In this document: one piece after another, positions 10,013-64,000 of the stretch
Layout of the letters: every line of letters begins with the position of its first letter
Numbering within the stretch: position 1 is the stretch's first letter
Origin: an uncultured Gemmatimonadaceae bacterium
GTDB lineage: Bacteria; Gemmatimonadota; Gemmatimonadetes; Gemmatimonadales; Gemmatimonadaceae
Reading direction: 5' to 3'
Assembly: GCA_963781585.1 (NCBI GenBank)
Contig: CAWAGQ010000014.1
Coordinates: 1-64,000 of the forward strand
Length of the DNA: 64,000 bases
Notes under the pieces: generated by a model
What the model saw: the letters and a program-made list of their open reading frames with translations, nothing else
Told to the model about the DNA's origin: nothing
Database searches by the model: none
Made by a program: the position numbers and the translations under genes

Positions 10013-10276
10013 GGATGATGCCTCCTGTAGGCACCTCGGAAAGTCCAACTACGAACGGTCTGCGCGGAAGGGGAGCTTACCAATGAAGATCGATTTTTTC
10101 GAGCAAATGGCCGCATGAACACCCCGAAAGACCGGCATCCGACCACTTGAGACAGCCGGGTCAATTCCAGCCCGCTCCCAACCACACCAGCCTTCTGCCC
10201 TCTTCTGGCGAGAGACCAGTACTGACTGCGGTGGGCGGAGGTCATCGGACGAACCGCTCGATGGTCGCGAGCCAGT

Positions 10277-18476: not shown

Positions 18477-19161
18477 GATCCGACTCTTTGTTCCAGCGGC
18501 GCTGCTCGGCGCCGGATGCGTGCTGCTGTTTGGCGTCCATCGGCAGCATCCGACGCGGCTGGCGCAACCGCTACGGACCATGCCGCTCGAGGTGGCCGGA
18601 TACACCGGAGTCGAACGCACGGTGAGTGAGCCCGAGCAGCGGGTCGCCGGCATGTCCGACTACGTGTACCGGATCTTCGGTCGCGATTCGGCCGCGTTTT
18701 CGGTCTACGTGGGCTACTACGAGAGCCAGACCACCGGGCGCACCATTCATTCACCCAAGAACTGCCTGCCCGGCGCCGGGTGGGAAGCGTTGCAATCAGG
18801 CACGGAGTCGCTGGATGCCGGGGAAGCCGCAGGAGCCGGTGGGGCCCGCGTCACCGTGAATCGCTATCTGCTGGCCAACGGCGCCAGTCAGGCCCTCGTG
18901 CTGTACTGGTATCAAGGGCGCGGCCGGGTGGCGTACAGCGAGTACCGCGTGAAGTGGGATCTGCTCCGCGACGCCATGCGGTTCGGACGCACGGAAGAGG
19001 CCCTGGTGCGGGTGGTGGTTCCGATCGCGCCTGGAACGGCCGCGACACGCGCCGCGCGCGAGTCGGCTGCCGACTCGCTGGCGCGGGCTGCGGCGATCGA
19101 TCTCATCCCGAGGCTGGACGCCGCGCTGCCCGCCTGGTCGAATCGCGGGCCCCGCGCCTGA
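18469..19161 (+). CDS. epsI: EpsI family protein
   Basis: VYVGYYESQ, IHSPKNCLPGAGW, VLYWYQGRGR, ALVRV; overlaps the exosortase gene. Confidence 0.9.
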   Translation: MREIRLFVPAALLGAGCVLLFGVHRQHPTRLAQPLRTMPLEVAGYTGVERTVSEPEQRVAGMSDYVYRIFGRDSAAFSVYVGYYESQTTGRTIHSPKNCLPGAGWEALQSGTESLDAGEAAGAGGARVTVNRYLLANGASQALVLYWYQGRGRVAYSEYRVKWDLLRDAMRFGRTEEALVRVVVPIAPGTAATRAARESAADSLARAAAIDLIPRLDAALPAWSNRGPRA

Positions 19162-47830: not shown

Positions 47831-49849
47831 CTAGAAGCGGTGTCTGATGGTCACCCGCAGCGAGCGCCCGTCGCGCGGGAGCAGGATCTGCAGATGCTCC
47901 TCACCGCCCGGGTCGGCGTAGCGCGCGTCGAACAGGTTGCGAATGCTCACCGACATTTCGGTGCCCTGGCCTGGCCCCGCGACGTGGAGCGTGAGATTGG
48001 CGACCGTATACGCCGGGTCCGTGCCACCGCTGAGCGTGGGCCGCGAGCCGAGGTGGCGCACTTCGAGCGCCAGGTGGCCGCGCCCGTCGAGCAGCGGAAC
48101 CGACGCGCCGCCGTGCACGATGGTCCGAGGTGAATTCGCCGGCGTGGTCGACGAATCGCCGATGGCATGCTGGTACGCGTACGAGACCCTGCCCTCGATC
48201 GCCGGCAGGTGGCCAGCGATCTCGAACTCCACTCCGCGGCCCGTGGGTTGACCGCCGTTCGCGAATACGAGGAGCGAATCGGACGGGTCGGTGACGAGGT
48301 TGATCAGGTCACGCGTGCGGATGCGGTATGCCGACACTGAAGCGAAGAGTGTCGACCCGATCGCCTGCTCGATGGAGAGTTCCTCCGTCTGCACTCGTTC
48401 GGGTTTCAGCGAGGGCGGTGCCTTCTGGGTCTCGCCGCCATCCTGGTAGTAGAGTTCGTACAGATTGGGCGCCCGGAAGGCCTGGCCGTACAGGGCCTTG
48501 ATGCTCGTGGCGGAGAAGGGGTGCAGCACGAGCGCAGCGCGGGGATTTGTGGTTCCGCCGATTCCCTCGTACTGGTCATGACGCAGCCCGGCGTATGCAA
48601 CGGCGCGGGCGCTGAATCGCCATTCCAGCTGGCCGTAGGCCGCACCGGCCATCCGTGAACGATTCAGGTCCAGGTACGTGACCCGGGGATCGACGTCGTA
48701 CCCACCGATCTGGCCACTGCTCAGCCACTGCGTCTCGCCCCCAAAGGTCAGCTTGTGGCCGGATCCGAAGTACCGCAGGTACTCGCCCTGCAGCGACCAG
48801 GCCTGGCTGTGGTTGTAGTCGCGGAACAGAACGTCGGTGTATGGATACTGCCCGTCGTAGCGGTAGCTGTCGAAGGCCGCGGTGGCGAAGGCGCGCGAGA
48901 GATCCTCGAACGCATGTTCATAGCTCAGCGTGGCCGTGGCGGTCCGGTCGTGCGTGCGGAAGCGGGGATCGTCGAACACAGTCGAGTACGAGGCCGTGGG
49001 GACGTCGCGCTCCCGGGCGCTGTAGGCCGCGAGCGCCGAGAAATCACCCATCGATCCCTTCGCAAGACCGCGGTACGTCTGCTCGCTGTCCATCCCGCGC
49101 ACCACGCCGTTGTTGGTCTGCGGCGAATCGAACTCGGGATAGTAGAGGTTCTGTCCGCCCCGACGTTCGGCCGATCCGCTGAACAGCATCTCGTGCGATC
49201 CACGCACCCGCTTGCCCAGCGACAGCGCCCCGCGGGCATAGCCGAAACTCCCGGCCTCCGCCGTTCCCTGCAGGCCCGGGAGTTGCCGGCCACGCTTGGT
49301 CACCAGGTTCACCACGCCGAACAGGGCATTGGTGCCGAACAGCGCGGACCCCGGACCCATGATCACTTCGACGTGGTCGATCAGGTCCACGTCCACCAGG
49401 GCGTCCGTCCCGATCCCGGTGGCGTCGGTGGCCGCATCGTTGATGCGGTGGCCGTCGACGAGCAGCAGGATTCGGGTGTTGAAGTCACTCTGCCGCGACA
49501 TGCCGCGAATGGTCGCGTACGCGTACTCGCGATCGTAGTAGGTGAAGATGCCGCGCACTGCGCCCAGGATGTCGGCCAGCGTGCGATAACCCTGCCGGCG
49601 AATCTCATCGGCGGTGATGATCGTGACCGACGCCGGCGCCTCGCTCGCATCCTGCGCATAACGCGAAGCGCTGAAGACGAGACGCTGGCCGGCGAACGCC
49701 GGCGCGCTGTCCGCGGCAGGCGGAGCGGCGGCCTGCGCGGCGAGTGAGCCCGCAGCCGGCCTCAGCGTCGACGCGACCGCGAGGGCCACGAGTGCGCGAC
49801 GCCAGCCGCGCGCCGAGCCGCGTTGCCGGGAGGTCAATTGCGTCTTCAT
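47831..49849 (-). CDS. TonB-dependent receptor (signalling-operon associated)
   Basis: SASRYAQ...APASVTIITADEI, ILLLVDG, IDHVEVIMGPGSALFG, RNLFD, C-terminal F. Confidence 0.9.
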   Translation of the reverse strand: MKTQLTSRQRGSARGWRRALVALAVASTLRPAAGSLAAQAAAPPAADSAPAFAGQRLVFSASRYAQDASEAPASVTIITADEIRRQGYRTLADILGAVRGIFTYYDREYAYATIRGMSRQSDFNTRILLLVDGHRINDAATDATGIGTDALVDVDLIDHVEVIMGPGSALFGTNALFGVVNLVTKRGRQLPGLQGTAEAGSFGYARGALSLGKRVRGSHEMLFSGSAERRGGQNLYYPEFDSPQTNNGVVRGMDSEQTYRGLAKGSMGDFSALAAYSARERDVPTASYSTVFDDPRFRTHDRTATATLSYEHAFEDLSRAFATAAFDSYRYDGQYPYTDVLFRDYNHSQAWSLQGEYLRYFGSGHKLTFGGETQWLSSGQIGGYDVDPRVTYLDLNRSRMAGAAYGQLEWRFSARAVAYAGLRHDQYEGIGGTTNPRAALVLHPFSATSIKALYGQAFRAPNLYELYYQDGGETQKAPPSLKPERVQTEELSIEQAIGSTLFASVSAYRIRTRDLINLVTDPSDSLLVFANGGQPTGRGVEFEIAGHLPAIEGRVSYAYQHAIGDSSTTPANSPRTIVHGGASVPLLDGRGHLALEVRHLGSRPTLSGGTDPAYTVANLTLHVAGPGQGTEMSVSIRNLFDARYADPGGEEHLQILLPRDGRSLRVTIRHRF

Positions 49850-50361
49850 GGCGTCACCGCCACGTCATGCACCGTGCCATTCACCACGGCGGCCGCCGCG
49901 ACGTAGCCGATGGCTCCGGGTGTGCTGCTCACGTAGGCCACGATCGCGGCGTCGGTGTTCTTGACCGGTGGCGGCTCCGATCGGCCGGCGAAGATCTCCT
50001 GGACCCAGTACGCCGACACCGCGCCCGGTGTCCGATGGAGGATCTGCCGCGAAAACGTGTCTCGCACCGCGGTCTCGGCCGGCAGGTCCACCGGCGCGAC
50101 CGGACCGCCGTCGGGCCATGAGGTGCGGCGACGCAGGAAGTAAGCCGCCACGTCCTCGCGGCTCAGCGATCTGACGGGATTGGAGGCGTTGACGATCACG
50201 CGAAACTCTGTCGACAAGGGAGATGGCGCGGCCGCGCCGACCGCGAACGCCGACACGGCGAACGGAGTCAGAAGGACGAACACCGCCGCCAGCCAGCGAG
50301 CCCGCCTGGCTGGTCGGAACGGGAGCGTTCCGCCGCGCGCGAACAACGGACGAGAGGCCAC
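49846..50361 (-). CDS. Small periplasmic binding protein-like (PstS-related single domain)
   Basis: Signal peptide, VIVNASNPV, FLRRRTSWPDG, YWVQEIFAG, YVSSTPGAIGYV. Confidence 0.8.
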   Translation of the reverse strand: MASRPLFARGGTLPFRPARRARWLAAVFVLLTPFAVSAFAVGAAAPSPLSTEFRVIVNASNPVRSLSREDVAAYFLRRRTSWPDGGPVAPVDLPAETAVRDTFSRQILHRTPGAVSAYWVQEIFAGRSEPPPVKNTDAAIVAYVSSTPGAIGYVAAAAVVNGTVHDVAVTP

Positions 50362-51476
50362 TATGCGAACGCGGGTATTCCGGCCACGGGCAATTCCGGC
50401 ACGGCGTCATCGGCCAGGCGCTCGCGCGCCTCGAGCACCGCGCCCCACTGCGCGAGGAAGGCGTCCACACAGACCGGATCGAAGTGCTTGCGCGAGCCCT
50501 GCTGGATCAACGCGCGGGCGTCGGCCAGCGGCCAGGCGGCCTTGTAGGGACGCCGTGAGGTGAGCGCATCGAACACGTCGGCCACGGCGACGATGCGTCC
50601 GGCCATCGGAATCGCCTCGCCGGCGAGCGCCCGCGGGTAACCGCTCCCGTCGAACTTCTCGTGATGCGTGAGCGCGATCTCGGCACCGAGCTGCAACAGC
50701 CGAGAATTGCTGTCGCGGAGGATCTCGTGACCGATCACGGTGTGCCGTTGCATCAGCGCGTATTCCTCCGGATCCAGGCGATCCGGCTTGCGGAGGATGA
50801 AGTCGGGGATGCCGATCTTGCCGATGTCGTGGAGCGGAGCGGCGAGCACCACTTCCTCGGCGAAATCCGGCGACAGCGTGAGCTCGCCGGTGATGAGCCG
50901 CGTGTACTCGACGATGCGCAGGATGTGCTGCCCTGTCTCCCAGTCCCGATATTCCGCCGCGCGTGCCAGCCTGATGATGGTCTCCCGCTCGCGATTCGCG
51001 ATGGTGGTGGTGGCGCGACGCACTTCGTCAGCCAGCCATTTCGACTTGTCCGCCAGCTTCCTCTTGGCGCGCGCCAGCGTCACCATGTTGCGTGTCCGAG
51101 CCCGGATCTCGTCGGCGTCCAGCGGCTTGGTGAGAAAGTCGATGGCGCCGAGCATCAGCGCGCGCTGGCGCAGCTCGCGCTCCGTGGATGCGGTGACCAC
51201 CATGATCGGGGCGTCGCCGCCGCGATCGTCCATCGTGCAGGCCTGGATCAGCTGCAGCCCGTCCATCACGGGCATCTGCAGATCGGTAATGAGCAGGTCG
51301 CAGGGACCCTCGCGGTACGCGGCGAGCGCCTCTTCCGGATTCTCGAACGCCCGCACCTGAACGTCATTCAGGCCGGCCAGGGCATGCTCGAGCAGCTTGA
51401 GGCTGATTACCGAGTCGTCAACAATGATGACGATGGCTCGTTCGTCGGAGTCGGGCGTAAGGGGAGTGCTGATCAT
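50361..51476 (-). CDS. REC + HD-GYP cyclic-di-GMP phosphodiesterase (RpfG-like)
   Basis: IVDDS, ITDLQMP, ETGQH, LHDIGKIGIPD, HHEKFDGSGYP, ADVFDAL, RPYK; start ATG 51476. Confidence 0.93.
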   Translation of the reverse strand: MISTPLTPDSDERAIVIIVDDSVISLKLLEHALAGLNDVQVRAFENPEEALAAYREGPCDLLITDLQMPVMDGLQLIQACTMDDRGGDAPIMVVTASTERELRQRALMLGAIDFLTKPLDADEIRARTRNMVTLARAKRKLADKSKWLADEVRRATTTIANRERETIIRLARAAEYRDWETGQHILRIVEYTRLITGELTLSPDFAEEVVLAAPLHDIGKIGIPDFILRKPDRLDPEEYALMQRHTVIGHEILRDSNSRLLQLGAEIALTHHEKFDGSGYPRALAGEAIPMAGRIVAVADVFDALTSRRPYKAAWPLADARALIQQGSRKHFDPVCVDAFLAQWGAVLEARERLADDAVPELPVAGIPAFA

Positions 51477-54202
51477 GAGAGCGCTCGTACGAAGGTGGTG
51501 GCGCGCTCGAAGGCGTCGCCCAGGCGCTCGCGAATTGGTTCGACGAGCTCCCATTGCTCCTGCTTTGCTGCGTGTTCCAGTTCACGCGCGAGTTCGGCTA
51601 CTTCCCGGGACCCGACGGACGCCGCCGATCCCTTGAGGCTGTGCGACGCACTCTGCAGCGCCTTCGCTTCGCGCGACGCGATGGCGCCATCGACCTGTTG
51701 AAGAACCGGCCCGCTGCTCTCGACGAACAGATCGAGGAACTGCCGCACGGTGTCGGCGTCGTCGCCGACCAGCGACTGCAGCTGCGTCAGGTCGATCGCG
51801 GCCGGCGGCTCGGCGGCCTCGCCGCTACCGGCGGCTGGCGCGTCGCGAACTGCGGGGGCGAGCAGGCCGGGGGGATCGGCTGTCCGCGCGGGGTCAGGGC
51901 GGATCCAGCGGGCGAGCGTCGTCCGCAGCACTTCGCGACGCAGGGGCTTCGCCATGAAATCATCCATCCCGGCGCTGAGACAGGCGTGCCGGTCGTCCTC
52001 CGTCGCGCTGGCGGTGAGCGCGACGATCGGCAGGCGATCCGAGGTGAACCCCAGTCGCCGCATCGCCGCTGTGGCCTGGAAGCCGTCGAGGTTTGGCATC
52101 CGGCAGTCCATGAGCACCAGGTCGTAGGACGCCTGCAATACCATGTCGACCGCGCGCTGGCCGTCGGCCGCGACTTCGGCATCGTAGCCGAGCCGGCGCA
52201 GCAGCTCGAGCGCGACCTGCTGGTTCACCGTATTGTCCTCGGCCAGCAGCACGCGGCCGCGCACGCCACCGACCGTCGCATCCGCACCCAGGTCCGCGAT
52301 GGCGAACGCATTTGGCGTGAGCCGTCTCACGGATCCGGAGCGTCCGGCGCCGAACAGGGCGTCGGTTGCCTGCAGCAACTGCGAACGGCGAACCGGCTTC
52401 AGGATCACGGCGCAGTCGTAGAGACTCGCGGCGTGACGCGCGTCCTCCCGACGGCGCAGCGTGCTCAGAAGCAGAATGGGGACTCCGGAATGCTTCGAGT
52501 CGCCCCGGATCTTCCCGGCGAGTTCGATTCCGTCGGTCCCCGGCATCTCGATGTCGCTGATGATCAGGCGCGGCGTATCACCGGCCGCACCCAGCCTGTG
52601 CAAGGCATCGAGCGCCTCGTCCGCGCCGCCGGCTGTCGAGCAGACGGCTCCGTTTCGCGACAGGACGCGCTCGAGCATTCGGCGGCTCTCGTCGCTGTCA
52701 TCCACGATGAGCACGCGGCATCCGTCGAGTCCGATGGACCGCGGCGCGGGCATTGCGTCCTTGGCGTTCCGGAGATGCACGGTGAAGCCGAACGTGCTGC
52801 CGACTCCAAGCTCGCTGCGGACCCAGGCCTGGCCTCCCATCATGGCGGCCAGCTGGCGGGAGATACTGAGCCCCAGCCCGGTGCCGCCGTATCGCCGCGT
52901 GGTCGAGGCATCGGCCTGCGTGAACGGGTGGAACAGGCGCTCCTGATCCTCGGGCGAGAGCCCGATGCCGGTGTCCCGCACCTCGAACTGGAGCTGGACT
53001 TCGCGATCGCTGAGCGACAGCAGATTCGCCTCGATCACGACAGCGCCGGCGCTCGTGAACTTGACGGCGTTGCCGGCCAGGTTGACCAGGATCTGCCGCA
53101 GGCGACCGGGATCGCCGCGCAGCGCGTCAGGGGCGTTGTCGGCGGCGATGCAGACCAGCTCCAGCCCCTTGCTCTCGGCCCGTTCGGCGAGCAGTTCGGT
53201 CACGTCCTCCAGCACGCCACGCAGCGAGAAGTCGATCTCCTCGAGGACCAGCTTGCCGGCCTCGATCTTGGAGAAGTCGAGGATGTCGTCGATGATGCCG
53301 AGCAGCGCTTCGGCGGAGCGGTGCGCTGTGAGGCAGAACTCGTGCTGCTCGGACGTCAGGTGTTCGTGCGCGAGCAGGTCCAGCATGCCGAGGACGCCGT
53401 TCATCGGGGTGCGAATCTCGTGGCTCATCACGGCGAGAAACGCCGACTTGGCCCGGGTGGCGTCGACCGCCGTGTCGCGCGCCGCCGCCAGCTCGCGCGC
53501 CTGATGCGCCAGATCCTCCACCTGGCTCCGGATGCGCTCCACCATGGTGGCGAACGCCGAGGCGAGCGCGCCGATTTCGTCGCTCTCCGCACGAGGGATC
53601 ACCACGTGATACTCCCCGGCAGCCATCCGGTCGGCCGCGCGACGCAACGACACGATCGGACGCACGATGCGACCGGCGATGATGAGCGACAGCAGACCGC
53701 CCACGCCGAACACCAGCAGGCTGACCGTCAGGCCAAGACGGCGTTGACGGGCGATCCGGCGCTGAAGGGGTGCCAGTGACGACCCCACAACCAGCGTTCC
53801 GAGCGTGTCGTCGCGAAAGTGAATTGGCGCTGCCACGAACAGGAGCCCGCGCCATTCATGCATGTCGCTGCGCGAAGCCTCGCGTATCGGATCCACGGGG
53901 AGGCTGTCGCGGTTGAACGCGGCGAACACGTTATCCGAAGTGTCGACCACCGCCAGGTAGGCCAACGCGCTGTCGCGCCGCGCCCAGGCGAACGCTGCCG
54001 CCACCGACGACGGGACGTTGAGACGCAGCGCCACTCCCACGCTCATTGCCACCATCTCGGCGGTGCCCGCCACCTGTTCGCGCCTGGCGCTCAGCGCCTC
54101 CTCGCGGTACTGCGCCGGATAGTAGAAGCCGACGAACAACGAAATCAGAAACGCGACCACGGCACCGCTGGCGGCAACCTTGATCCGAATCGGCCAGCGC
54201 AT
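51473..54202 (-). CDS. Hybrid sensor histidine kinase (TM-periplasmic-HAMP-HisKA-HATPase-2xREC-Hpt)
   Basis: MSHEIRTPMNG, NLAGNAVKFT, GGTGLGL, SDIEMP, MDCRMP, SHSLKGSAASVG; start ATG 54202. Confidence 0.95.
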   Translation of the reverse strand: MRWPIRIKVAASGAVVAFLISLFVGFYYPAQYREEALSARREQVAGTAEMVAMSVGVALRLNVPSSVAAAFAWARRDSALAYLAVVDTSDNVFAAFNRDSLPVDPIREASRSDMHEWRGLLFVAAPIHFRDDTLGTLVVGSSLAPLQRRIARQRRLGLTVSLLVFGVGGLLSLIIAGRIVRPIVSLRRAADRMAAGEYHVVIPRAESDEIGALASAFATMVERIRSQVEDLAHQARELAAARDTAVDATRAKSAFLAVMSHEIRTPMNGVLGMLDLLAHEHLTSEQHEFCLTAHRSAEALLGIIDDILDFSKIEAGKLVLEEIDFSLRGVLEDVTELLAERAESKGLELVCIAADNAPDALRGDPGRLRQILVNLAGNAVKFTSAGAVVIEANLLSLSDREVQLQFEVRDTGIGLSPEDQERLFHPFTQADASTTRRYGGTGLGLSISRQLAAMMGGQAWVRSELGVGSTFGFTVHLRNAKDAMPAPRSIGLDGCRVLIVDDSDESRRMLERVLSRNGAVCSTAGGADEALDALHRLGAAGDTPRLIISDIEMPGTDGIELAGKIRGDSKHSGVPILLLSTLRRREDARHAASLYDCAVILKPVRRSQLLQATDALFGAGRSGSVRRLTPNAFAIADLGADATVGGVRGRVLLAEDNTVNQQVALELLRRLGYDAEVAADGQRAVDMVLQASYDLVLMDCRMPNLDGFQATAAMRRLGFTSDRLPIVALTASATEDDRHACLSAGMDDFMAKPLRREVLRTTLARWIRPDPARTADPPGLLAPAVRDAPAAGSGEAAEPPAAIDLTQLQSLVGDDADTVRQFLDLFVESSGPVLQQVDGAIASREAKALQSASHSLKGSAASVGSREVAELARELEHAAKQEQWELVEPIRERLGDAFERATTFVRALS

Positions 54203-54322
54203 CCTGGCCCGTTGGAACAACACGCACCTCACGGAAAGAGTCCTGTGCGACACCGCATATCGGCGCGGTGACGGCATGCAGTCGCTCACGGCAGACCTGC
54301 CAGTGCTTCGACTGCGCCCTAT

Positions 54323-56565: not shown

Positions 56566-57486
56566 ATGACCGTGGCGGGCGGCCTCTCCTTTTCGGTGAT
56601 CGTGCCGACGCGCAACCGGCCGGCAGCGCTCGAGCGGTGCCTCGCGTCGCTCGCCGCGCAGTCGTACGCGAGGGACTCCATCGAGGTGGTCGTGGTGGAC
56701 GATGGAAGCGTGCCCCCACTGAGGGCGCCGATCGAGACGGCCGGTCGCCTGTCGCGATGCGTGCTCGTCTCCACTCCTGGTGTGGGGCCCGCCGCCGCGC
56801 GCAACGCCGGAGTCGCCGCGAGCCACGGCGATGCCCTGGCCTTCATCGATGACGACTGCGTCGCCGATCCCGGATGGTTGACGGCGCTGGCCGGGCGCCT
56901 GTGCGCTCAGCCCGGCGCCGCGGTTGGCGGGCGCGTCCGGAACGCGCTGACCGGCAACCGATATGCGCGGGCCAGTCAGTCACTGATTGATTTTCTGTAT
57001 CGATACTACCATGTGGAAGGGCGCGGCAGCGTGCCGTTCTTCACCACCAACAACCTGGCCGTGCGACGCGAGGTGTTCGAGGACGTCGGTCCCTTCGATC
57101 CTTCATTCCCGTTTGCGTCGGAGGATCGCGACTGGAGTGACCGCTGCCGCCACCGCGGCCGGGCACTCTGCTACGCCGGGGAGGCGTTGGTCTTCCACGC
57201 GAACGAGCTTGGCTGGCGCTCGTTCGTGCGGCAGCACTTTCGGTATGGCGAAGGGGCACTGCGGTTTCATCGCGCGCGGTCCCGGCGCCGCCGCGAACCG
57301 GTGGGGATGGAATCGCCGCGCTTCTATGCAAGAATGTTCCGGGAGCCATTCGCGACGCACGACCCGAACGCGCTCCGGCAGGTGGGGCTGCTGCTGATCT
57401 CGCAGGTCGCATCGGCGGCCGGCTTCGCGGACGCCTACCTGCGCGACCCGGCGCATCGCCGGCCTCCACCGACCGTCGGGCGCTAG
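56566..57486 (+). CDS. Glycosyltransferase family 2
   Basis: FSVIVPTRNR, VVVDDGS, GPAAARNAG, AFIDDDC, SEDRDW; GGAGG RBS and ATG 56566. Confidence 0.92.
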   Translation: MTVAGGLSFSVIVPTRNRPAALERCLASLAAQSYARDSIEVVVVDDGSVPPLRAPIETAGRLSRCVLVSTPGVGPAAARNAGVAASHGDALAFIDDDCVADPGWLTALAGRLCAQPGAAVGGRVRNALTGNRYARASQSLIDFLYRYYHVEGRGSVPFFTTNNLAVRREVFEDVGPFDPSFPFASEDRDWSDRCRHRGRALCYAGEALVFHANELGWRSFVRQHFRYGEGALRFHRARSRRRREPVGMESPRFYARMFREPFATHDPNALRQVGLLLISQVASAAGFADAYLRDPAHRRPPPTVGR

Positions 57487-58460
57487 TGGCATTTGCCGCC
57501 GCCGACGTCCCACGGCCGCCCCGTCACGTCGATGAAGGCGCGCTGGTATTCGCCGCCGCCCAGCGTGAGCTTCAGCACACCGAAGTGCCCCTGAATGCGA
57601 GCCACCGAATGCGCCGCCAGCGACCGACGAAAACCTCGGAGCTCGCCGCCGCCCGTTCCGACCACGATCTCGGCAATGCCGCGCAGCGTGTCGAGCGCCC
57701 CGGCCGGAGTCATCGGAAGGAAACGCTCGTAGTCGTGGTCGTGCCCGTTCAGCACGAGGTCGACGTTGGCGTCGTAGAGAACCTGCCAGAGGCTCCGCAG
57801 TCGCGTGTCGCTGCCGTGATACCCCGAGGTGAACCGCGGATGGTGCCAGTAGGCCAGCGTGCAGGCCTTGCGGTGCGCCGCCAAGTCGGCGCGCAGCCAG
57901 TCCTCCTGCGCCTTGCGCTCTTCGGGCAGGAACGCCGGGTCGACGATGATCTCGCTGTTCAGCGAGACGACGTGCCACTCGCCGATGTCGTAGCTGTAGT
58001 AACCCTCCTCAACCTTCCCGGCGCGGGTGCCGAAATAGAGGTAGTAGGGAGCTGCCTCCTCCGTCTCGTGCTCGTGATTCCCCGGCGCGGGATGGATCTC
58101 CTTCATGATGCGCTTCTGGGGATCGCCCCATGACGGCGTGAAGCACTGGTTGAAGTTCTGGATCGAACCTGCCGGGTAGGCGTTGTCCCCCAGCGTGAAG
58201 ACGCCGTCCTTCACATGCGCGGCGCTGTCGGCCCGGATGATGCTGTCCACGATCGCCGCGGTCCCCTCGTCACCGTGCGAGGCGCAGTCGGCGATGTCAC
58301 CAGCGCCGATCAGGACCGACGCGCCCGCCAGCGCCACCAGCTTTGGCGGTGCGTCGGCAGGAGGTGGCGTGGTCTGTACCGGTTGCGCGCAGAGCACCGG
58401 AATGGCCGGCAGCGTCACGATCAGCAGAGCATGGATGGGAGAGCGCATCCGCAGGGCCAC
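57483..58460 (-). CDS. Secreted calcineurin-like metallophosphoesterase
   Basis: Signal peptide; GAGDIA, LGDNAY, PGNHE, YWHHPRF, NGHDHDYERF. Confidence 0.92.
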   Translation of the reverse strand: MALRMRSPIHALLIVTLPAIPVLCAQPVQTTPPPADAPPKLVALAGASVLIGAGDIADCASHGDEGTAAIVDSIIRADSAAHVKDGVFTLGDNAYPAGSIQNFNQCFTPSWGDPQKRIMKEIHPAPGNHEHETEEAAPYYLYFGTRAGKVEEGYYSYDIGEWHVVSLNSEIIVDPAFLPEERKAQEDWLRADLAAHRKACTLAYWHHPRFTSGYHGSDTRLRSLWQVLYDANVDLVLNGHDHDYERFLPMTPAGALDTLRGIAEIVVGTGGGELRGFRRSLAAHSVARIQGHFGVLKLTLGGGEYQRAFIDVTGRPWDVGGGKCH

Positions 58461-58500
58461 GAGAGGTCGGTGAAAACAGAGCGGGGCGACCGCGCCTCAC

Positions 58501-61128
58501 TCAATAGGAGACGCCGAAGCCGAACAGCACTCTTCGGTCGCGGCGATTAGTCAGGGACATGGTGATGCCGGTGGCCGGGCCAAGCACGCCGAGCCAGAAT
58601 CCGGCGCCCGCCGCGCTGTGCCAGCCGCCCGGCGACGCGCCCTGGACGTAGACCCGCCCTGCGTCGAACCAGCCGATCGCGCCAACGTCGAGGGGCAGGA
58701 CGAACGCGAACCGCGCCAGCGGCACCCGCAGTTCCGCACCTCCGAAGACCGATGCATCGCCCAGAACCTGGTGATGGGGAATCGTCCGGACCGTTTCCGA
58801 GCCTCCAATGTAAGCCGCCTCGTAGAACGGATACGCGCCGAACAGCTTCTCCCCGCCGCCGCGCAGGGCGAGTACGGCGTGCGGCGGCAATGACAACGGG
58901 AAGTAGGTCGCCGCCGAGGCCGTGACCTGCTGGAATCCCGTCTTCAGGTTCCAGATGCCCGGATAGGCGGCACCCGATGCATCCACCACCAGCCCGCGAT
59001 GGGGATTCTGCGGGTCGTCTCGCGTGTCATGGTGCACCGCCAGCTCGAGCCCCGCCTGGCCCACGTGTCCCGCACCATACAACTCCTGCTTCGACAGAAA
59101 CCCCTCGGCCGGACCGGAGGTCGATACGTATTTCGCAATTGGTCCGACCGACACGTCGCTGTGCGGGCCGACCGAGACCCCCACCGCGGGATGGAGCACC
59201 CACTGTTGCTGCCTGACCTCGTAGAATGACCCCCGGAGGTCCGGCACGTCGTTGCCCAGCCCATGGAACTCCACCATCTCCAGTTGCGACATGCGCGCTT
59301 CCCCCAGGAGGTGGAGGCGTGACGCTTCGAATCGCCGGTCCCCCTCAACGCCGACATCCCACCCGTTCAAGCCGCTGGAATACGAGGCCTCGGCGCCCAT
59401 CATTGCTGCGTACGGGACTTCACGGAAGCCGTAGACGTACCGGGTGACGGCGATCTTCGGGACGAGGCCAAGACCGCGTCCGGTCCGGATGCCCACAACT
59501 GCCCGGAGCTGCGCGCCGCGGTCCCGGTACGGCGGAACCGCACTGCCGAACGCGAATTGCCACGGACGCCGGTTCCAGGCGGTATCGGGGTCGTAGCTCA
59601 CGCCGTGCACCGTGTCGCCCCGATAGCTCCAGCGCGTCACCGTCCCGGTGTCGTACAGGTGCGTTGGATGGGGACGCCCTGCCACGGTGGAAGAGTCAAC
59701 CAGTGTGTTCGTGCCATTGCCGCCGATGATGCGCACGGTGATGCTCCGGTCCGCGTGCCCCACCACCACCGCGCTGTCGTCACCGTTGTGCAGGTAGAGC
59801 CGGATTTCGCGGGTTGTTCCGGAGTCGAAGTGTCGCGTGAAGTACGGCGCACCGCGGCCGGAGCGGAGCCGCACTTCCACCACTCCGCCATTGCGGCGGA
59901 CCACCGTCGCCTGATCGTCGGCATCGGTGCCGTGGATGTCGGCAACCGCATTGACGACCTGGAAATAATGGAGGGCGGCGACGAGCAGGTGGTCGCGTCG
60001 TGCCCGAAGCGCCCCGCGCAGGGGGGGCGTCGCTGCCCGCTCACCAGGCGGCATGGCTGCGAGGGCGGCGTCGATGACCGAATCCGTGATGACGCGCGTG
60101 AGATGCCTGCCCACCGAATCCCACACGGCCTGGTCGAGGCCGACGAGGAGGCGACGGTCGAAGTCGATCGCGTTGTACGATAGCGCGGCGAGGTTCGGAT
60201 ACGTGCTGGTGAACGCCACCAGTTTCGGAGCCGCGACCCGCACCAGTCGGAGGAGCAGCCCGTCGTACGATTCGAACGCCTTGTCCCGATCCCGCGCGAT
60301 GGGCTCCCAGAGCGCGTCGGGCCCGGGACGCAGCTTGGCCCACTTCCATTGGCCGGGGTGGCGATCGTTGTCATTGATCATCATGTCGACTAGCCGGGCA
60401 GCGAGGAGCGCCCGACGGTCGACACGCGTGCGCGGATCGTGGTTGAGATCCTTGAGCAGGTCATCGCTGCCTATGACCGCCACGGCACCCGCGAACCCCG
60501 GCGCGTCCTCCGGCATGATCGGGTCCTCTTCGATCGTCCCTACCTTGCCCGCGAATTCGTCGCAGAACTTTCCGAGCAGCGAGTCGTCGGGCATCACGAC
60601 CAGTTGAGGAGTGGGATGAAGGACTCCGGCCGCCGCCACGACCGGCGGCGCCATGACCGTCGCGGCCGGGTGCGAGGCGCCCAGCTGGTCGCGGAATACC
60701 GTCTCGAAGACCGTTCCCCTGAATTCCCGATGGATTCCGAGACGCTCCTTGCGCACCGGCCGGAACACGTACTCGACGCCGTTGCGCGCGGCCAAGTGCA
60801 GATTCTTCGTCTGTGCCCCGCCGCCAGTCTTCCGTGGACGAAGCCCACCGGCGAAATGCGACAGATCCAGCAGCGGCACCCGGATCGAAGCCGCCCACGC
60901 GTCGCGATAGTCGTTGCCCAGCAGCAGGCGCCGCAGTCCGCCGGCCTCGAATTCCGGATCCGTTCGAACTACCGTATCGCGCGCGGTCGTGGGGTGCGAG
61001 ACCGGCCGCGCGGTAGCGCACGGCGCCGCCACCGGCGACGGCGGACGCTGGGCGCTCGCCGCGACCGGCCAGATGGCCGTCACAAGCGCGATCGCCCACG
61101 GGCGGACCGGCACGCATCGAGGGCTCAT
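58501..61128 (-). CDS. Omp85/BamA-TamA family outer membrane protein with N-terminal kinase-like domain
   Basis: Signal peptide ASA-Q. N-terminal GGGAQT / YVFR / DMMINDNDRHPGQW / ARDRDKAF. C-terminal barrel with HHDTRDDPQNPHRG, IGGSETVR, AELR, FDAGRVY and terminal FGVSY. Confidence 0.8.
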   Translation of the reverse strand: MSPRCVPVRPWAIALVTAIWPVAASAQRPPSPVAAPCATARPVSHPTTARDTVVRTDPEFEAGGLRRLLLGNDYRDAWAASIRVPLLDLSHFAGGLRPRKTGGGAQTKNLHLAARNGVEYVFRPVRKERLGIHREFRGTVFETVFRDQLGASHPAATVMAPPVVAAAGVLHPTPQLVVMPDDSLLGKFCDEFAGKVGTIEEDPIMPEDAPGFAGAVAVIGSDDLLKDLNHDPRTRVDRRALLAARLVDMMINDNDRHPGQWKWAKLRPGPDALWEPIARDRDKAFESYDGLLLRLVRVAAPKLVAFTSTYPNLAALSYNAIDFDRRLLVGLDQAVWDSVGRHLTRVITDSVIDAALAAMPPGERAATPPLRGALRARRDHLLVAALHYFQVVNAVADIHGTDADDQATVVRRNGGVVEVRLRSGRGAPYFTRHFDSGTTREIRLYLHNGDDSAVVVGHADRSITVRIIGGNGTNTLVDSSTVAGRPHPTHLYDTGTVTRWSYRGDTVHGVSYDPDTAWNRRPWQFAFGSAVPPYRDRGAQLRAVVGIRTGRGLGLVPKIAVTRYVYGFREVPYAAMMGAEASYSSGLNGWDVGVEGDRRFEASRLHLLGEARMSQLEMVEFHGLGNDVPDLRGSFYEVRQQQWVLHPAVGVSVGPHSDVSVGPIAKYVSTSGPAEGFLSKQELYGAGHVGQAGLELAVHHDTRDDPQNPHRGLVVDASGAAYPGIWNLKTGFQQVTASAATYFPLSLPPHAVLALRGGGEKLFGAYPFYEAAYIGGSETVRTIPHHQVLGDASVFGGAELRVPLARFAFVLPLDVGAIGWFDAGRVYVQGASPGGWHSAAGAGFWLGVLGPATGITMSLTNRRDRRVLFGFGVSY

Positions 61129-62063
61129 GAGCGTCGCTCCGGCAGCGGCGGAGGCGGCCAATGGTACAGAGTGATCATCGCCTCGCCGCCGGCTGCCTCG
61201 TCGCTCACGATCAGCACGCGGTCGCGCGTGACCGCGACGCCCTCGGCCTGCGGATGCGAGCCCGGAAGGGCGGTGACCCGCACCACGCCACCGGTCGGGG
61301 TGATTTCGACCAACGCGTGCTCGATCGACGCCACCATGACGTAGTCACCGGTGGCCGGGTCGATGGCAATGTCGGATGGGTGCAGACTGCTCCATCGAGT
61401 GGAGCCGATCAGGCGGCCGAGCGGCACTGTCATCATCGAAATGCGCGGTGACTCGGCCCCTTGCAAATTCCAGCGATAGATCACGAGCTGATCGCGCAAT
61501 GCCTTCTTCCTCACTTTCTTGCACGGAAGCAGCAGCGACTCGGAGCGGGGCTCGAACGCCACGCCCTCGAATTCGCATTCGTGCCCGAGCCGGGTGTCAT
61601 GGATCGCGAACGGCACGTGCGCTCCATCGGCGCCCTCGCGGAACTCGTACAGGGTGCCGTTGCTCTCGATCATGTAGATCGTGCCGTTGGCGATCGTCAG
61701 GCCTTCGAAGTCGCCGTGGATCGCGGTTGCGCCGACCGCGAAGCGCTTGAGAATGGTGCCGCCGCGCGGGTCGATCACGGTGATCAGGCCGCGTTCATCG
61801 CCGTTCGTCAGGAGACGCCCGTCGGCCGTGAGCGCGATGCCGGAGATCTCGCGCAGCGCCTTCGGCAACCACCAGCGCGCCAGCGGGACGGTGTCGTCGG
61901 CGAGCCGGGCGGGAGGCGACATGAGCCGGGTCGCGAACCGCACCCGGCGGGCCGCGCTTTCCGCCATCTGCGCGCGCGCGCTCATGCCGTCGCCCGCTGG
62001 ACGGCATCCCATCCACGCCATCAGCGCACACACCGATCCGATGAGCAGCCGATGGCGCGTCAC
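61125..62063 (-). CDS. SdiA-regulated (YjiK-like) beta-propeller protein, probably a lipoprotein
   Basis: LREISGIA, NGDE, GDFEGLT, EFEGVAF, LHPSDIAI, QAEGVAV, IVSDE; N-terminal ALMAWMG-C; AGGAG RBS before GTG 62063. Confidence 0.8.
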   Translation of the reverse strand: MTRHRLLIGSVCALMAWMGCRPAGDGMSARAQMAESAARRVRFATRLMSPPARLADDTVPLARWWLPKALREISGIALTADGRLLTNGDERGLITVIDPRGGTILKRFAVGATAIHGDFEGLTIANGTIYMIESNGTLYEFREGADGAHVPFAIHDTRLGHECEFEGVAFEPRSESLLLPCKKVRKKALRDQLVIYRWNLQGAESPRISMMTVPLGRLIGSTRWSSLHPSDIAIDPATGDYVMVASIEHALVEITPTGGVVRVTALPGSHPQAEGVAVTRDRVLIVSDEAAGGEAMITLYHWPPPPLPERRS

Positions 62064-63148
62064 GATGTCTCCTGGTGCTTGCGCTGTATCGCCTCCCCCA
62101 GCTCGAGCTCGGCGTTCCCGATGCAATCGACTCCACGCGCCCGGACCGCCGTGATGAGTTCTTCGCGCGACAGCGACTTGCCGATCCGGACCAGGTAATG
62201 GAGCTGCGACGGCTTGCCGACATGCGACACGACTTCATCGAGCAGCCAGCGCTTGGTCATCTTGTCGAGCACTTTCTGAACGGCGACCTGCGCCTCGCCG
62301 ACCTGGTCGGTGGTGACTGTCAGCACGGCGTTGAATCGCGGCTTTTTCGTCCTGGGACCCAGCACCTGGCGCATACGATCGAAGCGTTCGGCGAGCACCT
62401 CGACCTTCTTGGGAGTCAGCGCGAGCATCAGATCGCGATCAGGGACGTGACCGTTCCCGTTGGACCGGGCCAGGCTGTCGAGCGGCTGACTCCACTGGGC
62501 GACCGGCGTCGGCACGAGCACGTTTCGCCCGAAGTCGTAGCGCCAGGTGAGGAGGAGGACGAAGTTGAAGATCATCGATACGAAGGCGCCCAGGGCCAGC
62601 GTCTGCACGCCCGCGGCGAAGCCCACTGCGATCGCGAGGAAGATGAAGACGCTGTCGCGCGCGTCGCGCAGGGTGGTGCGGAATCGCACCGCCGCGACCA
62701 CGCCCGCCAGACTCAGGGCGAGGGCCAGACTGTCCCGCACCACGAAGACCACGCCCGCGATCACCAGCGGGAGGATGATGAGGGCCTGAGCGACCGACTG
62801 GTTATGGCCCGGCGTTTCCCGCGCCGACATGTACACCCAGGACACGGGGAGCATGAGCGCCAGTGTCCCCAGCAGCGACACGAAGGTGGTGATCCCGATT
62901 CCCGGCAGCGAGTCGGACGTGAAGACGGGCAGCTGGGCGCTCGCCGGACTCAGTCCGTCCTGGAGCAGCCGGGTGGGCCCGGCTCCCGCGCCGAGCGTAT
63001 CGCCGAGGAGCAGGTGATTCAGAGGAGGAAACAGCCACAGCAGCAGGGTGGTCACCCCGGCGAGCACCGCGTAGTACGCGAGCAGGCACCGCAGGGGACG
63101 ATCCGAGCCGCGAGTGATGAAACCGATGGTGCGTGAGACGATGGACAT
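62060..63148 (-). CDS. DUF4956 domain (MgtC/SapB-like) membrane protein
   Basis: ALSLAGVVAAVRFRTTLRDARDSVFIFLAIAVGFAAG plus a C-terminal soluble alpha/beta domain; start ATG 63148. Confidence 0.8.
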   Translation of the reverse strand: MSIVSRTIGFITRGSDRPLRCLLAYYAVLAGVTTLLLWLFPPLNHLLLGDTLGAGAGPTRLLQDGLSPASAQLPVFTSDSLPGIGITTFVSLLGTLALMLPVSWVYMSARETPGHNQSVAQALIILPLVIAGVVFVVRDSLALALSLAGVVAAVRFRTTLRDARDSVFIFLAIAVGFAAGVQTLALGAFVSMIFNFVLLLTWRYDFGRNVLVPTPVAQWSQPLDSLARSNGNGHVPDRDLMLALTPKKVEVLAERFDRMRQVLGPRTKKPRFNAVLTVTTDQVGEAQVAVQKVLDKMTKRWLLDEVVSHVGKPSQLHYLVRIGKSLSREELITAVRARGVDCIGNAELELGEAIQRKHQETS

Positions 63149-63450
63149 GCCTGGTTCCGTTGAGAGGGCCGATGAAGGCGCGGACAGGGATCCCATCATA
63201 CCCGTCGTTTCGTCGGGTGAGTTCCGCGGAGGCGCCCTGCTCAGCCATACCGCGTCCGGATGAGCGCGTCGTGTGCCGCGATCGGAGAAGGCCGGTCTGA
63301 TGCCAGCGGGGGATACGGCGGCCTGATCGGGGTTTCGGCGTGCCGCGTCGCGGCCGATCGGCGTGGCCGCCGGAGCGCGCCGTGCGGCCTGTTGGAAAGG
63401 AAGGCGCGCCCGGTCAGCCGGTCGCCGGTGCGCCTAACGAGTGACCGGCG

Positions 63451-63999
63451 TCAGGCGGGGGATGTGGAGGCGCACGGGTCGCTGTTGTGGGCCAGGCAGA
63501 ATTCCGCGGCTGCTTCGATCGAGAGCTGAAACGTGAACGTCGCCGGATTGCCGGTCGGGTAGTAGAGCGAGCCCTGATGCTGCACCAGCGTACAGACGAT
63601 CGCGGCGAACGACGGATCGGTCCACAGCGACGTGTACGTCTTCAGGACCGACGCCGGGTCCTGGGTGGGATCGAACGCCATCGAGAGCTGCCACCCGGCG
63701 GCGATCAGATCCTGCACCATGATCTTCTGGGCGCCCGCGCAGTTGGCAGGCAGCAGCTTCCCCGAGCCTACGGTCTTGAAGCCCTGCGCCCGGGCATAGA
63801 AATAGTAGGGATGATTGGCGGCCAGCACCGGCGTCGTCAGGCCGGACACGATTTCGACCGTGGCCGCCTGGTTGACGCCAAGCGAGACCCCGAACAACTC
63901 GCTGAACACGGTGCGGGCCGGCGCGCCGTAGACCATCAGCGGAATGGAGTAGGCCGGGCTCAACGCGCTCGGGGTCAGCAGCGTCGTGAGCTGCGCCAG
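63451..63999 (-). CDS. Hypothetical protein; 5' part lies beyond the window
   Basis: Frame open to the window edge (LAQLTTLLTPSALSPAYSIP...); GC3-rich codons; no family recognised. Confidence 0.6.
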   Translation of the reverse strand: MAQLTTLLTPSALSPAYSIPLMVYGAPARTVFSELFGVSLGVNQAATVEIVSGLTTPVLAANHPYYFYARAQGFKTVGSGKLLPANCAGAQKIMVQDLIAAGWQLSMAFDPTQDPASVLKTYTSLWTDPSFAAIVCTLVQHQGSLYYPTGNPATFTFQLSIEAAAEFCLAHNSDPCASTSPA

Positions 64000-64000
64000 T

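Follow-up and report, generated by a model that had tools for sequence, protein, structure and literature searches.

Gram-positive pel clusters carry genes for a DUF4956 protein, a VTC-like polyphosphate polymerase, and a secreted CotH kinase, and the link of DUF4956 to polyphosphate polymerases and CotH that an earlier note on this DNA had named is thus in print (PMC7112168; bioRxiv 10.1101/2024.04.20.589940). The second source describes this set as functionally uncharacterised, with deletion mutants without a clear phenotype. It also describes the membrane protein of the Streptococcus DUF4956 cluster as MgtC-like, with four transmembrane helices plus an ACT domain at its C terminus, placed in the MgtC family by CDD, and it summarises MgtC as a regulator linked to phosphate and ATP homeostasis (bioRxiv 10.1101/2024.04.20.589940). 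The Streptococcus counterpart suggests regulation as much as transport. The type species of the phylum Gemmatimonadota has been described as polyphosphate-accumulating, according to a title in a reference list.

The window analysed here is a 64,000-nucleotide stretch of DNA from an uncultured Gemmatimonadaceae bacterium, in which ORF mapping located four co-oriented ORFs (A, B, C, and D) on the minus strand at 57483–63148 (Table 1). A GTGA overlap joins the stop codon of A and the GTG start of B, an ATGA overlap joins the stop codon of B and the ATG start of C, and C and D are separated by 40 nt; an alternative ATG start of D is present at 58448. The ORF coordinates and junctions confirmed the co-oriented, overlapping arrangement described in the earlier note, and the identities proposed there (DUF4956 protein, propeller lipoprotein, kinase-Omp85 protein, and phosphatase) were borne out by Pfam matches above gathering score and, for the kinase, at the fold level. 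The explanation that we favour, at slightly under an even chance, is that the four genes form one conserved Gemmatimonadota envelope module for phosphoryl chemistry outside the cytoplasm, tied to polyphosphate metabolism. Judging from the parts of the operon and the frequent polyphosphate neighbours in relatives, it may represent an undescribed way of carrying out phosphate chemistry outside the cytoplasm.

Table 1. Features of the four-gene operon and positions in the window.
Feature	Position	Strand	Description or basis
Gene A	62060..63148	-	DUF4956 inner-membrane protein, 362 aa, P0001
DUF4956 core of A, residues 98–200	62549..62857	-	Best Pfam stretch
Soluble C-terminal domain of A, residues ~215–362	62063..62506	-	Secondary structure and pLDDT
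Gene B	61125..62063	-	Lipoprotein beta-propeller, 312 aa, P0002
Gene C	58501..61128	-	Signal peptide, kinase-like domain, beta-rich linker and Omp85 barrel, 875 aa, P0003
Kinase-like domain of C, residues ~55–395	59944..60966	-	AF2 fold and Foldseek
Putative catalytic loop of C, D253-N-D255-R256-H257-P-G-Q260-W261	60346..60372	-	Invariant residues and CtkA alignment
D280-R281-D282 of C, candidate metal-binding (DFG-like) motif	60283..60291	-	Invariant
Beta-rich linker of C, residues ~396–560	59449..59943	-	AF2 strands
Omp85-type beta-barrel of C, residues ~561–875	58504..59448	-	Pfam Omp85
Gene D	57483..58460	-	Purple-acid-phosphatase-like metallophosphoesterase, probably lipoprotein, 325 aa, P0004

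Related loci were retrieved via gene C, and the best 80 of 405 matches were compared, 79 of which belong to records named as Gemmatimonadota-lineage; since all 80 loci were retrieved in this way, the following co-occurrence figures are conditional on C. Of the testable loci, 50 of 55 had A adjacent, 60 of 65 had B, and 58 of 69 had D. In 38 of 48 testable loci, the four genes stood together and in the order A-B-C-D, an arrangement that is not due to chance. Thus, the co-occurrence in other genomes on which the earlier note had staked its reading was found within Gemmatimonadota. The flanks of the cassette vary from locus to locus while the order of the four genes is kept, which shows that the cassette moves as a unit. 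No phosphate transporter was found within the conserved cassette in the comparison of these loci.

Among 8000 scored sequences, 964 relatives of C were found at E ≤ 1e-3; they carry no functional name, most of the named ones being annotated as "hypothetical protein" and one as "surface antigen Omp85-like protein". No Pfam family matched residues 1–509 of C at E ≤ 10. The N-terminal region was modelled by AF2 with a pLDDT of 90.4 and a pTM of 0.91, and in this model the domain has a two-lobe protein-kinase-like fold. Foldseek found 33 PDB matches at E ≤ 1e-3; all those listed at that level were kinase entries, led by CtkA (Helicobacter pylori JHP940; E 4.4e-6, TM-score of ~0.5 on the target), PI4KII-alpha, Fam20C, CotH, and HipA. 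The segment D253–W261 was aligned by profile to the CtkA loop holding the DRH motif (CtkA residue D155). Within 33 C sequences, D253, D255, R256, Q260, W261, and also K127 were invariant and H257 was nearly invariant, and D280-R281-D282 was invariant here and in two further comparisons. The candidate metal-binding role of the latter motif is read from its location after the catalytic loop. The candidate kinase-type residues, D255, D280/D282, and K127, whose roles are assigned only by analogy, are thus all invariant. The earlier proposal that the N-terminal domain is a kinase therefore holds at the level of fold and motif.

The catalytic-loop pattern, with an aligned Asp-Arg-His core, is shared with CtkA and with the HipA-family Ser/Thr kinases (structural match E ~1e-4). 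However, identity to these kinases is 12–14%, C has Gln where the CtkA/HipA loop has its metal-binding Asn, which would be a conservative change, and C is exported and fused to a barrel, whereas CtkA and HipA are cytoplasmic or components of toxin-antitoxin systems. Assignment to the HipA family was rejected, as neither HipA_C nor HipA_2 (PF07804, PF20613) matched in Pfam and the exported barrel fusion has no antitoxin partner. Assignment to the CotH kinases (PF08757) was likewise rejected: the domain matched no Pfam family at E ≤ 10, and CotH was just the tenth fold match (5jda, E 6.4e-5). A protein-atlas lead from the C domain to CotH scored 0.76, a level at which scores are often due to chance. 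Fam20 entries, including Fam20C (Golgi casein kinase), matched the domain at E 5e-5 to 4e-4 and likewise represent a kinase fold outside the cytosol. The Fam20 enzymes are eukaryotic and draw on ATP that is imported into the Golgi; we know of no donor supply route for the bacterial periplasm.

Downstream of this domain, the linker consists of strands only from model residue 346 on (AF2) and had no Pfam match, and it carries conserved peptides that were used for retrieving relatives. The C-terminal part matched Omp85 (PF01103) at residues 693–864 of the long ORF (39.8 bits vs. a gathering score of 24, E 5e-10); the NCBIfam model Omp85_fam gave 73 bits, under its cut-off of 200, and the barrel showed weak matches to BamA barrels in PDB (E 0.12). 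C is thus an exported protein that combines a kinase-like domain with intact catalytic-loop residues and an Omp85 barrel. No POTRA domain was detected in C, as residues 1–509 were without a Pfam match at E ≤ 10 and the modelled linker is all-beta rather than beta-alpha-alpha-beta-beta, and C was therefore not assigned to Omp85 proteins of the BamA, TamA, or TpsB type. PlpD-like type Vd autotransporters are Omp85 superfamily proteins with an N-terminal enzyme domain, a patatin lipase. C has the same order of signal peptide, enzyme-like domain, and C-terminal Omp85 barrel, but has no detected POTRA separating its enzyme-like domain from the barrel, and the fold of this domain is kinase-like.

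In the module that we favour, C would be anchored at the outer membrane as an active kinase, with its kinase domain facing the periplasm by default because Omp85 N-terminal domains do so, and it would phosphorylate an envelope substrate, be it a protein, a glycan, or a lipid. The phosphate on this substrate would be removed or recycled by D and perhaps also by B. A would tie the module to the polyphosphate of the cytoplasm, either by letting a phosphoryl donor (polyphosphate or, with lower probability, ATP) through the inner membrane or by gating the system through its ACT-like domain. The barrel-tethered kinase would then fill the role of the secreted CotH kinase in the Gram-positive sets. 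The earlier note had proposed a machine that moves a phosphate donor across the envelope and adds or removes phosphate on surface substrates; the parts, their co-occurrence, and the link to polyphosphate are supported, whereas donor transport, kinase activity, and the substrate are what we infer.

The cassette resembles the Gram-positive set in encoding a DUF4956 protein with an ACT-like C-terminal domain and an exported protein with an atypical kinase fold, and relatives of the cassette likewise pair DUF4956 with a polyphosphate-making enzyme having a triphosphate-tunnel (CYTH/VTC-type) domain. Unlike in that set, the kinase is not CotH and is fused to an Omp85 barrel, no polymerase is encoded inside the cassette, two lipoprotein hydrolases are added, and the host is diderm and the cassette has no pel link.

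Gene D matched Metallophos with 40.5 bits vs. a gathering score of 21.5 (Pfam), and its best PDB sequence match was a purple acid phosphatase (6git, E 4.1e-5). Seven residues, D55, D92, Y95, N128, H206, H240, and H242, were invariant in 27 sequences and occupy all seven ligand positions of the five purple acid phosphatase motifs. D is thus a purple-acid-phosphatase-type binuclear metallophosphatase by sequence, with all metal ligands, although unlike purple acid phosphatases it lacks the N-terminal fibronectin-like PAP domain in Pfam, is small, and is probably anchored as a lipoprotein. The earlier note regarded it as a secreted phosphatase, but its signal sequence ends in a Cys that is nearly invariant in the alignment of relatives, so D is probably a second lipoprotein rather than an enzyme released in free form. 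The longer D relatives are PKD/Big_2 surface proteins, one of them named acid phosphatase type 7. The existence of Omp85-metallophosphoesterase fusions in Bacteroidota, which had also been stated there, found no support, PF01103 being present in 0 of the 120 longer D relatives listed.

Gene B matched the SdiA-regulated propeller family PF06977 (25.9 bits vs. a gathering score of 21), the match covering only profile positions 26–86 of 249. Among 40 relatives, PF06977 was found in all and the Phytase-like family PF13449 in 32; the lipobox Cys20 was nearly invariant, and two further Cys and many acidic residues were invariant. B is thus a lipoprotein of a phosphohydrolase-like family (phytase-like/SdiA-regulated six-bladed propeller). 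Identification of B as BamB was rejected, as the scores were below the cut-offs (TIGR03300, 15.8 bits vs. 285.2; PQQ_2, 20.7 vs. 27.6).

Polyphosphate genes were frequent near the cassette in relatives. A co-oriented ppx gene (exopolyphosphatase) lies directly 3′ of the cassette in 29 of 64 testable loci, mostly from one clade, and is not beside it in the other 35, and in 26 of 53 loci ppk1 was no more than 3 kb away. The ppx/ppk adjacency corresponds to only two changes on the gene C tree, which indicates essentially one ancestral arrangement and one rearranged locus. In locus L068, a DUF4956 paralogue (34% identity with A in an alignment of 280 residues that takes in part of the C-terminal domain) abuts a CYTH-PPK1 fusion gene, whose start coincides with the last base of the paralogue, and a Hanks kinase gene follows; in L055, DUF4956, Hanks kinase, and CYTH-PPK1 genes lie on the opposite strand, convergent with D. 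The neighbourhood check for polyphosphate genes suggested in the earlier note was thus positive in relatives. In the window itself, ppk and ppx were absent by tblastn, and none of VTC, CYTH, CotH, PPK, and PPX was found among the 37 ORF translations scanned, which came from crude gene calling with gaps. A polyphosphate polymerase next to DUF4956 is therefore a feature of the relatives (ppk1, CYTH-PPK1) but not of the window.

The hydrolase-like genes of the cassette could also indicate a module that scavenges phosphate or degrades polyphosphate, with D and B liberating phosphate from organophosphates or polyphosphate outside the cell, C serving as an anchor in the outer membrane or in uptake and using its kinase-like domain only to bind a phosphorylated ligand, and A being an accessory membrane protein. 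We consider this unlikely. It would account for two of the four genes belonging to phosphohydrolase-like families, for the surface-protein relatives of D, for the adjacent ppx, and for a PHO4 phosphate transporter gene found upstream in L009, but the catalytic-loop and DRD residues that are invariant in the C family would be superfluous in a domain that only binds, DUF4956 recurs with polyphosphate synthases (VTC, CYTH-PPK1) and kinases and not with hydrolases alone, and the conserved cassette is without a transporter for the released phosphate.

Gene A matched DUF4956 (PF16316) with 36.5 bits vs. a gathering score of 30.6 (E 5e-9), all 49 of its relatives matched this family too, and 25 of the 30 nearest clusters in the protein atlas are DUF4956. 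About six predicted transmembrane helices are followed by a soluble domain of ~145 residues, and A is thus a polytopic DUF4956 protein of the inner membrane whose C-terminal domain is soluble. The DUF4956 core holds most of the columns that are invariant in the family alignment (P101, W104, Y106, Q117, Q121, P127, G149, R155, R157, R164, and D165). The AF2 model of A had a low pLDDT of 65.5 (helices 18–39, 81–108, 117–137, 141–155, 163–180, and 184–207) and no match in PDB, so that a channel function is pure analogy. The C-terminal domain, modelled at pLDDT 73–84, matched no Pfam family at E ≤ 10 and is conserved over its full length among relatives; residues 274–350 are modelled as a beta-alpha-beta-beta-alpha-beta (ferredoxin/ACT-like) unit. 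A therefore resembles MgtC in joining a polytopic N-terminal membrane domain to an ACT-like C-terminal domain, but belongs to DUF4956.

This layout, together with the MgtC-like Streptococcus counterpart, would fit a regulatory or signalling module in which A, as an MgtC-like regulator, senses a cytoplasmic metabolite through its ACT-like domain, the envelope state is relayed to polyphosphate or phosphate homeostasis or the reverse, no donor crosses the membrane, and C is a signalling kinase acting on a few envelope proteins. Also in line with this are one Acidobacteriota DUF4956 cluster of the atlas with MgtC on 10% of its members and the Hanks-type kinases that adjoin the cassette or a second DUF4956 gene in L051, L056, L068, and L055. 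We nevertheless judge it as improbable as scavenging: the MgtC model (PF02308) matched only 2 of 49 A relatives, at E ~0.5, a kinase outside the cytoplasm still requires a phosphoryl donor, which a relay leaves unexplained, and two hydrolase-like lipoproteins are unexpected in a pure signalling relay.

That the four genes merely lie side by side and share no function, the kinase-like domain of C being a degenerate fold with a structural role in the periplasmic part of an assembly factor of the BamA type, is disfavoured and very improbable, since beside the Omp85 barrel of C and the sub-threshold BamB-like matches of B that would suit it stand the undetected POTRA, the gene order kept despite varied flanks, the start/stop overlaps that couple the genes, and the invariant catalytic-type residues of C.

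The cassette consists of four co-oriented minus-strand ORFs, in DNA with a G+C content of about 68%: A, a DUF4956 inner-membrane protein; B, a lipoprotein propeller; C, a kinase-like domain with an Omp85 barrel; and D, a metallophosphoesterase. Co-orientation and the coupling of the first three genes by GTGA and ATGA overlaps were seen as described in the earlier note, and the DUF4956, propeller, Omp85 and phosphatase names given there were borne out by Pfam, every match lying above gathering score. A glycosyltransferase gene is convergent with D, head-to-head at the D end, and the operon therefore terminates at D. In keeping with the statement there that the operon holds no VTC or CotH gene, neither these nor PPK or PPX were found among the 37 window ORF translations scanned (gene calls with gaps); no ppx or ppk was detected in the window. 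An Rfam scan of window positions 57000-64000 gave no matches at E ≤ 0.1, and a promoter and terminator scan gave nothing exceeding shuffles.

Coordinates of the cassette, of other features in the window and of features in related loci of species genomes found through gene C (L numbers)
Sequence	Position	Strand	Feature	Remarks
Window	57483-63148	minus	Cassette A-B-C-D	
Window	62060-63148	minus	Gene A	DUF4956 above Pfam gathering score; TGA overlaps GTG start of B (GTGA)
Window	61125-62063	minus	Gene B	SdiA-regulated propeller above gathering score; TGA overlaps ATG of C (ATGA)
Window	58501-61128	minus	Gene C	C-terminal third Omp85, above gathering score
Window	57483-58460	minus	Gene D	Metallophos above gathering score; 40 nt after C
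Window	63451-63963	minus	170-residue ORF	Upstream of A, same strand; third-position G+C 0.88; without Pfam match
Window	51473-54289	minus	Hybrid histidine kinase gene	HAMP, HisKA, HATPase, two receiver stretches, Hpt
Window	47831-50361	minus	TonB-dependent receptor gene	Preceded by a small ORF; ~7 kb from cassette
Window	17568-19161		Exosortase (EpsH) gene, then DUF3485 gene	
Window	9746-10048		HTH_Tnp_1 transposase helix-turn-helix ORF	Few other ORFs called in that stretch
L051	4098-7016		Large Hanks-type kinase gene	Just upstream of cassette; kinases of ~970-1040 aa in L051 and L056
L056	4138-7263		Large Hanks-type kinase gene	Just upstream of cassette
L009	1941-2978	minus	PHO4 phosphate transporter gene	Upstream of cassette
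L050	13457-13963		Histidine-phosphatase-family gene	Directly after D
L061	9407-9913		Histidine-phosphatase-family gene	Directly after D
L068	5918-11210		Second module	DUF4956 paralogue, CYTH-PPK1, Hanks-type Ser/Thr kinase
L055	13270-18547	minus	Second module	DUF4956 paralogue, CYTH-PPK1, Hanks-type Ser/Thr kinase

The N-terminal 509 residues of C matched no Pfam family at E ≤ 10. Residues 50-480, modelled from 62 sequences (pLDDT 90.4, pTM 0.91), gave 33 Foldseek matches in PDB at E ≤ 1e-3, and those listed were all kinase entries, with Helicobacter pylori CtkA at the top (4.4e-6) and PI4KII-alpha, Golgi casein kinase/Fam20, CotH and HipA also present. Identities were 10-14% and TM-scores moderate (about 0.5 normalised on CtkA), so that the modelled likeness to kinases is at superfamily level and does not amount to family membership. 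When PDB sequences were searched with a profile, CtkA again came first, at a non-significant E of 0.23, and in this alignment the invariant stretch of the C family around D255-R256-H257 meets the Asp-Arg-His loop of CtkA. Among 33 full-length relatives K127, D253, D255, R256, Q260, W261 and D280-R281-D282 were invariant; by analogy only, these residues may be read as catalytic base, metal ligands and nucleotide-binding lysine, with Gln standing in the catalytic loop where the usual loop Asn is found. Atlas leads for the domain were CotH, HipA_2 and HipA_C at a low score (0.76), a level often reached by chance. Between the kinase-like domain and the barrel the model places an all-beta linker, in which no POTRA signature was detected by the Pfam scan or in the model. 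The fusion of a kinase-like domain to an Omp85 barrel is a new domain architecture, and a narrow literature search found no publication on it.

The best relatives of C were labelled Gemmatimonadota. Among 8000 candidates scored, 964 relatives were found at E ≤ 1e-3, the named rows being mostly 'hypothetical protein' and one 'surface antigen Omp85-like protein', none of them a functional name. When 1.84 billion proteins were searched with a profile of the N-terminal domain, 3241 representatives (50% identity) were obtained at E ≤ 1e-3 and 1590 at E ≤ 1e-30, and most of the best 150 had the length of the barrel-fused form, about 860 residues. Only 37 shorter relatives with the kinase domain were found; several carry 'partial' in their source names, and many lie on contigs of a few kb, a few on long contigs. 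The C family is large and has neither a Pfam model for its kinase part nor a functional name in any source.

Protein A was predicted to contain about six helices followed by a conserved soluble C-terminal domain of about 145 residues, in which a weak AF2 model (pLDDT 65.5) places a beta-alpha-beta-beta-alpha-beta unit. This model had no match to PDB folds at E ≤ 1e-3, the alignment profile of A gave only chance-level rows against PDB sequences, and the C-terminal 146 residues matched no Pfam family at E ≤ 10. Neither A nor B, searched as single sequences, matched any PDB sequence. The lipobox cysteine of B is nearly invariant, and two other cysteines and many acidic residues are invariant; the SdiA-regulated model was matched by 40/40 relatives. 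Matches of B as a BamB-like protein fell far under the cut-off. For D, purple acid phosphatases were the best solved relatives, and D55, D92, Y95, N128, H206, H240 and H242, which we take to be the seven ligand positions of these enzymes, were invariant in 27 sequences. Because a nearly invariant cysteine closes its signal sequence, D is probably a second lipoprotein rather than a freely secreted enzyme, and of the 'secreted phosphatase' of the earlier note the phosphatase family stands and free secretion probably does not. The longer relatives of D were PKD/Big_2 surface proteins, and PF01103 was absent from all of the best 120 (of 3977), which is weak evidence against fusion of a D-like phosphatase to Omp85, and no literature on Omp85-metallophosphoesterase fusions was found in the partial texts available.

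The related loci comprise the best 80 of 405 matches in species genomes, obtained with two conserved peptides of C; 79 of the loci are named as from Gemmatimonadota-lineage MAGs and one as from an unidentified bacterium. Where the flanking DNA sufficed for the count, A was directly upstream in 50/55, B directly upstream in 60/65 and D directly downstream in 58/69, and all four genes were together in 38/48, all co-occurrence counts being conditional on C because the loci were found through its peptides. Thus, the four families named in the earlier note do co-occur within Gemmatimonadota. Among the exceptions, L023 contained none of A, B and D, L080 and L047 contained D only, an adjacent D was missing in seven loci, and A-B-D lay about 4 kb away from C in L069 and L071. 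Some genomes carry two cassettes on separate contigs (L021/L057, L047/L065 and L051/L055, each pair from a single MAG) and some carry tandem copies, with an extra C upstream of A-B-C in L038, L059 and L074 and a second A after D in L068, L070 and L078.

Clustering of the flanking ORFs and scanning of representatives showed that the nearest downstream family, co-oriented with the cassette, is a Ppx/GppA exopolyphosphatase, and the next, convergent, is the polyphosphate kinase PPK1. A ppx gene directly follows the cassette in 29/64 testable loci, and ppk1 lies within 3 kb in 26/53; a ppk/ppx link, as the earlier note had proposed to look for, is thus found in the relatives and not in the window. 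A quick maximum-likelihood tree was built for the kinase domain (72 rows, 15 of them unlabelled; nine loci with incomplete domains omitted). On it the ppx-adjacency label needed only two changes, and ppx adjacency therefore goes back essentially to a single ancestral arrangement, with L069/L071 as a rearranged locus. Independent evidence comes from L068, which lies in the tree's other main branch. There a second DUF4956 gene comes after the cassette; its product shares 34% identity with A across 280 aligned residues, part of the C-terminal domain among them. One base serves both as the last of this gene and as the first of the gene for a 1055-residue CYTH-PPK1 fusion (CYTH 25.9 bits, cut-off 23.2), and a Hanks-type kinase gene is next. 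In L055 the DUF4956, Hanks kinase and CYTH-PPK1 genes lie on the other strand and converge with D, so that the gene order of this second module differs between the two loci. Its CYTH-PPK1 protein (about 1060 residues) joins CYTH (triphosphate tunnel) to a complete PPK1, a fusion that is itself unusual.

From the observed gene order, coupling, domain families, kinase fold, conserved residues, lipoboxes, synteny and polyphosphate-gene neighbourhood, we tentatively read the cassette as an envelope kinase module, at somewhat less than an even chance. C would be an active kinase that is tethered to the outer membrane and acts on an envelope substrate, D and perhaps B would reverse or recycle the modification, and A would connect the module with the pool of polyphosphate in the cytoplasm, either conducting a donor or regulating. 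The earlier note had proposed an envelope phospho-transfer system with donor transport, kinase and phosphatase; this is partly supported by the parts, their co-occurrence and the polyphosphate neighbourhood, which was not visible to its author. Hydrolytic scavenging of phosphate, in keeping with the family of D and with the 'Phytase-like' model matched by 32/40 relatives of B, is improbable, as is a regulatory module of MgtC type, the MgtC model being touched by 2/49 relatives of A at E of about 0.5 and DUF4956 matched by 49/49; these two readings differ mainly in the roles given to A and to the kinase-like domain, the latter with its invariant putative catalytic residues. The cassette stays intact while the flanks vary among locus groups, and chance neighbourhood of four genes without common function is very unlikely.

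Kinases depend on a phosphoryl donor, and ATP is generally taken to be absent from the periplasm. Since the candidate catalytic residues of C are intact, the fuel of this putative outer-membrane-tethered kinase becomes a sharp and testable question.

Comparable DUF4956 gene sets are described in Gram-positive bacteria. In streptococci, clostridia and bifidobacteria, pel clusters are reported to carry a contiguous accessory set in which a CotH-like kinase and a polyphosphate polymerase are joined by DUF4956 and DUF4832 (PMC7112168). The Streptococcus intermedius set is reported to encode a secreted CotH-like kinase with catalytic residues present and a cytoplasmic VTC-like polyphosphate polymerase, and gene deletions there were without clear phenotype (10.1101/2024.04.20.589940). 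Like these sets, the cassette pairs a DUF4956 protein carrying an ACT-like tail with an exported kinase-fold enzyme, here in a diderm, and its relatives add a polyphosphate enzyme with a triphosphate-tunnel domain. However, its kinase is of another kind and welded to an outer-membrane barrel, it has two extra lipoprotein hydrolases, and no polymerase is present inside the cassette itself. We class it as a variant form of the DUF4956/polyphosphate-polymerase/exported-kinase gene sets, which have barely been described.

The recurrence of DUF4956 beside unrelated polyphosphate-making enzyme families and three kinds of kinase gives a concrete hypothesis for DUF4956 and for bacterial extracytoplasmic phosphorylation. 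DUF4956 proteins might be bacterial polyphosphate conduits that correspond in function to the membrane channel in the VTC complex of eukaryotes and supply polyphosphate made in the cytoplasm to extracytoplasmic kinases (CotH in monoderms, the Omp85-tethered kinase here), a joint reading that we regard as quite unlikely. If it were true, the ATP-free periplasm and the cell surface would use polyphosphate as their currency for phosphoryl groups and energy, and the cassette would be a complete write/erase system for envelope phosphorylation, made of a kinase and a purple-acid-phosphatase lipoprotein, in a phylum whose first description rested on a polyphosphate accumulator; its type species was described as polyphosphate-accumulating. 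The cassette also bears on how an abundant soil phylum cycles phosphorus.

As to the surroundings of the cassette, the 170-residue ORF is not kept upstream of A elsewhere, judging by family strings of the loci, and the hybrid histidine kinase has no visible cassette link in other loci. The small ORF before the TonB-dependent receptor gene gave a borderline match to PBP_like_2 (phosphate-binding-protein-like; 27.4 bits, cut-off 27). The EpsH and DUF3485 genes point to a putative PEP-CTERM-type sorting system in this genome.
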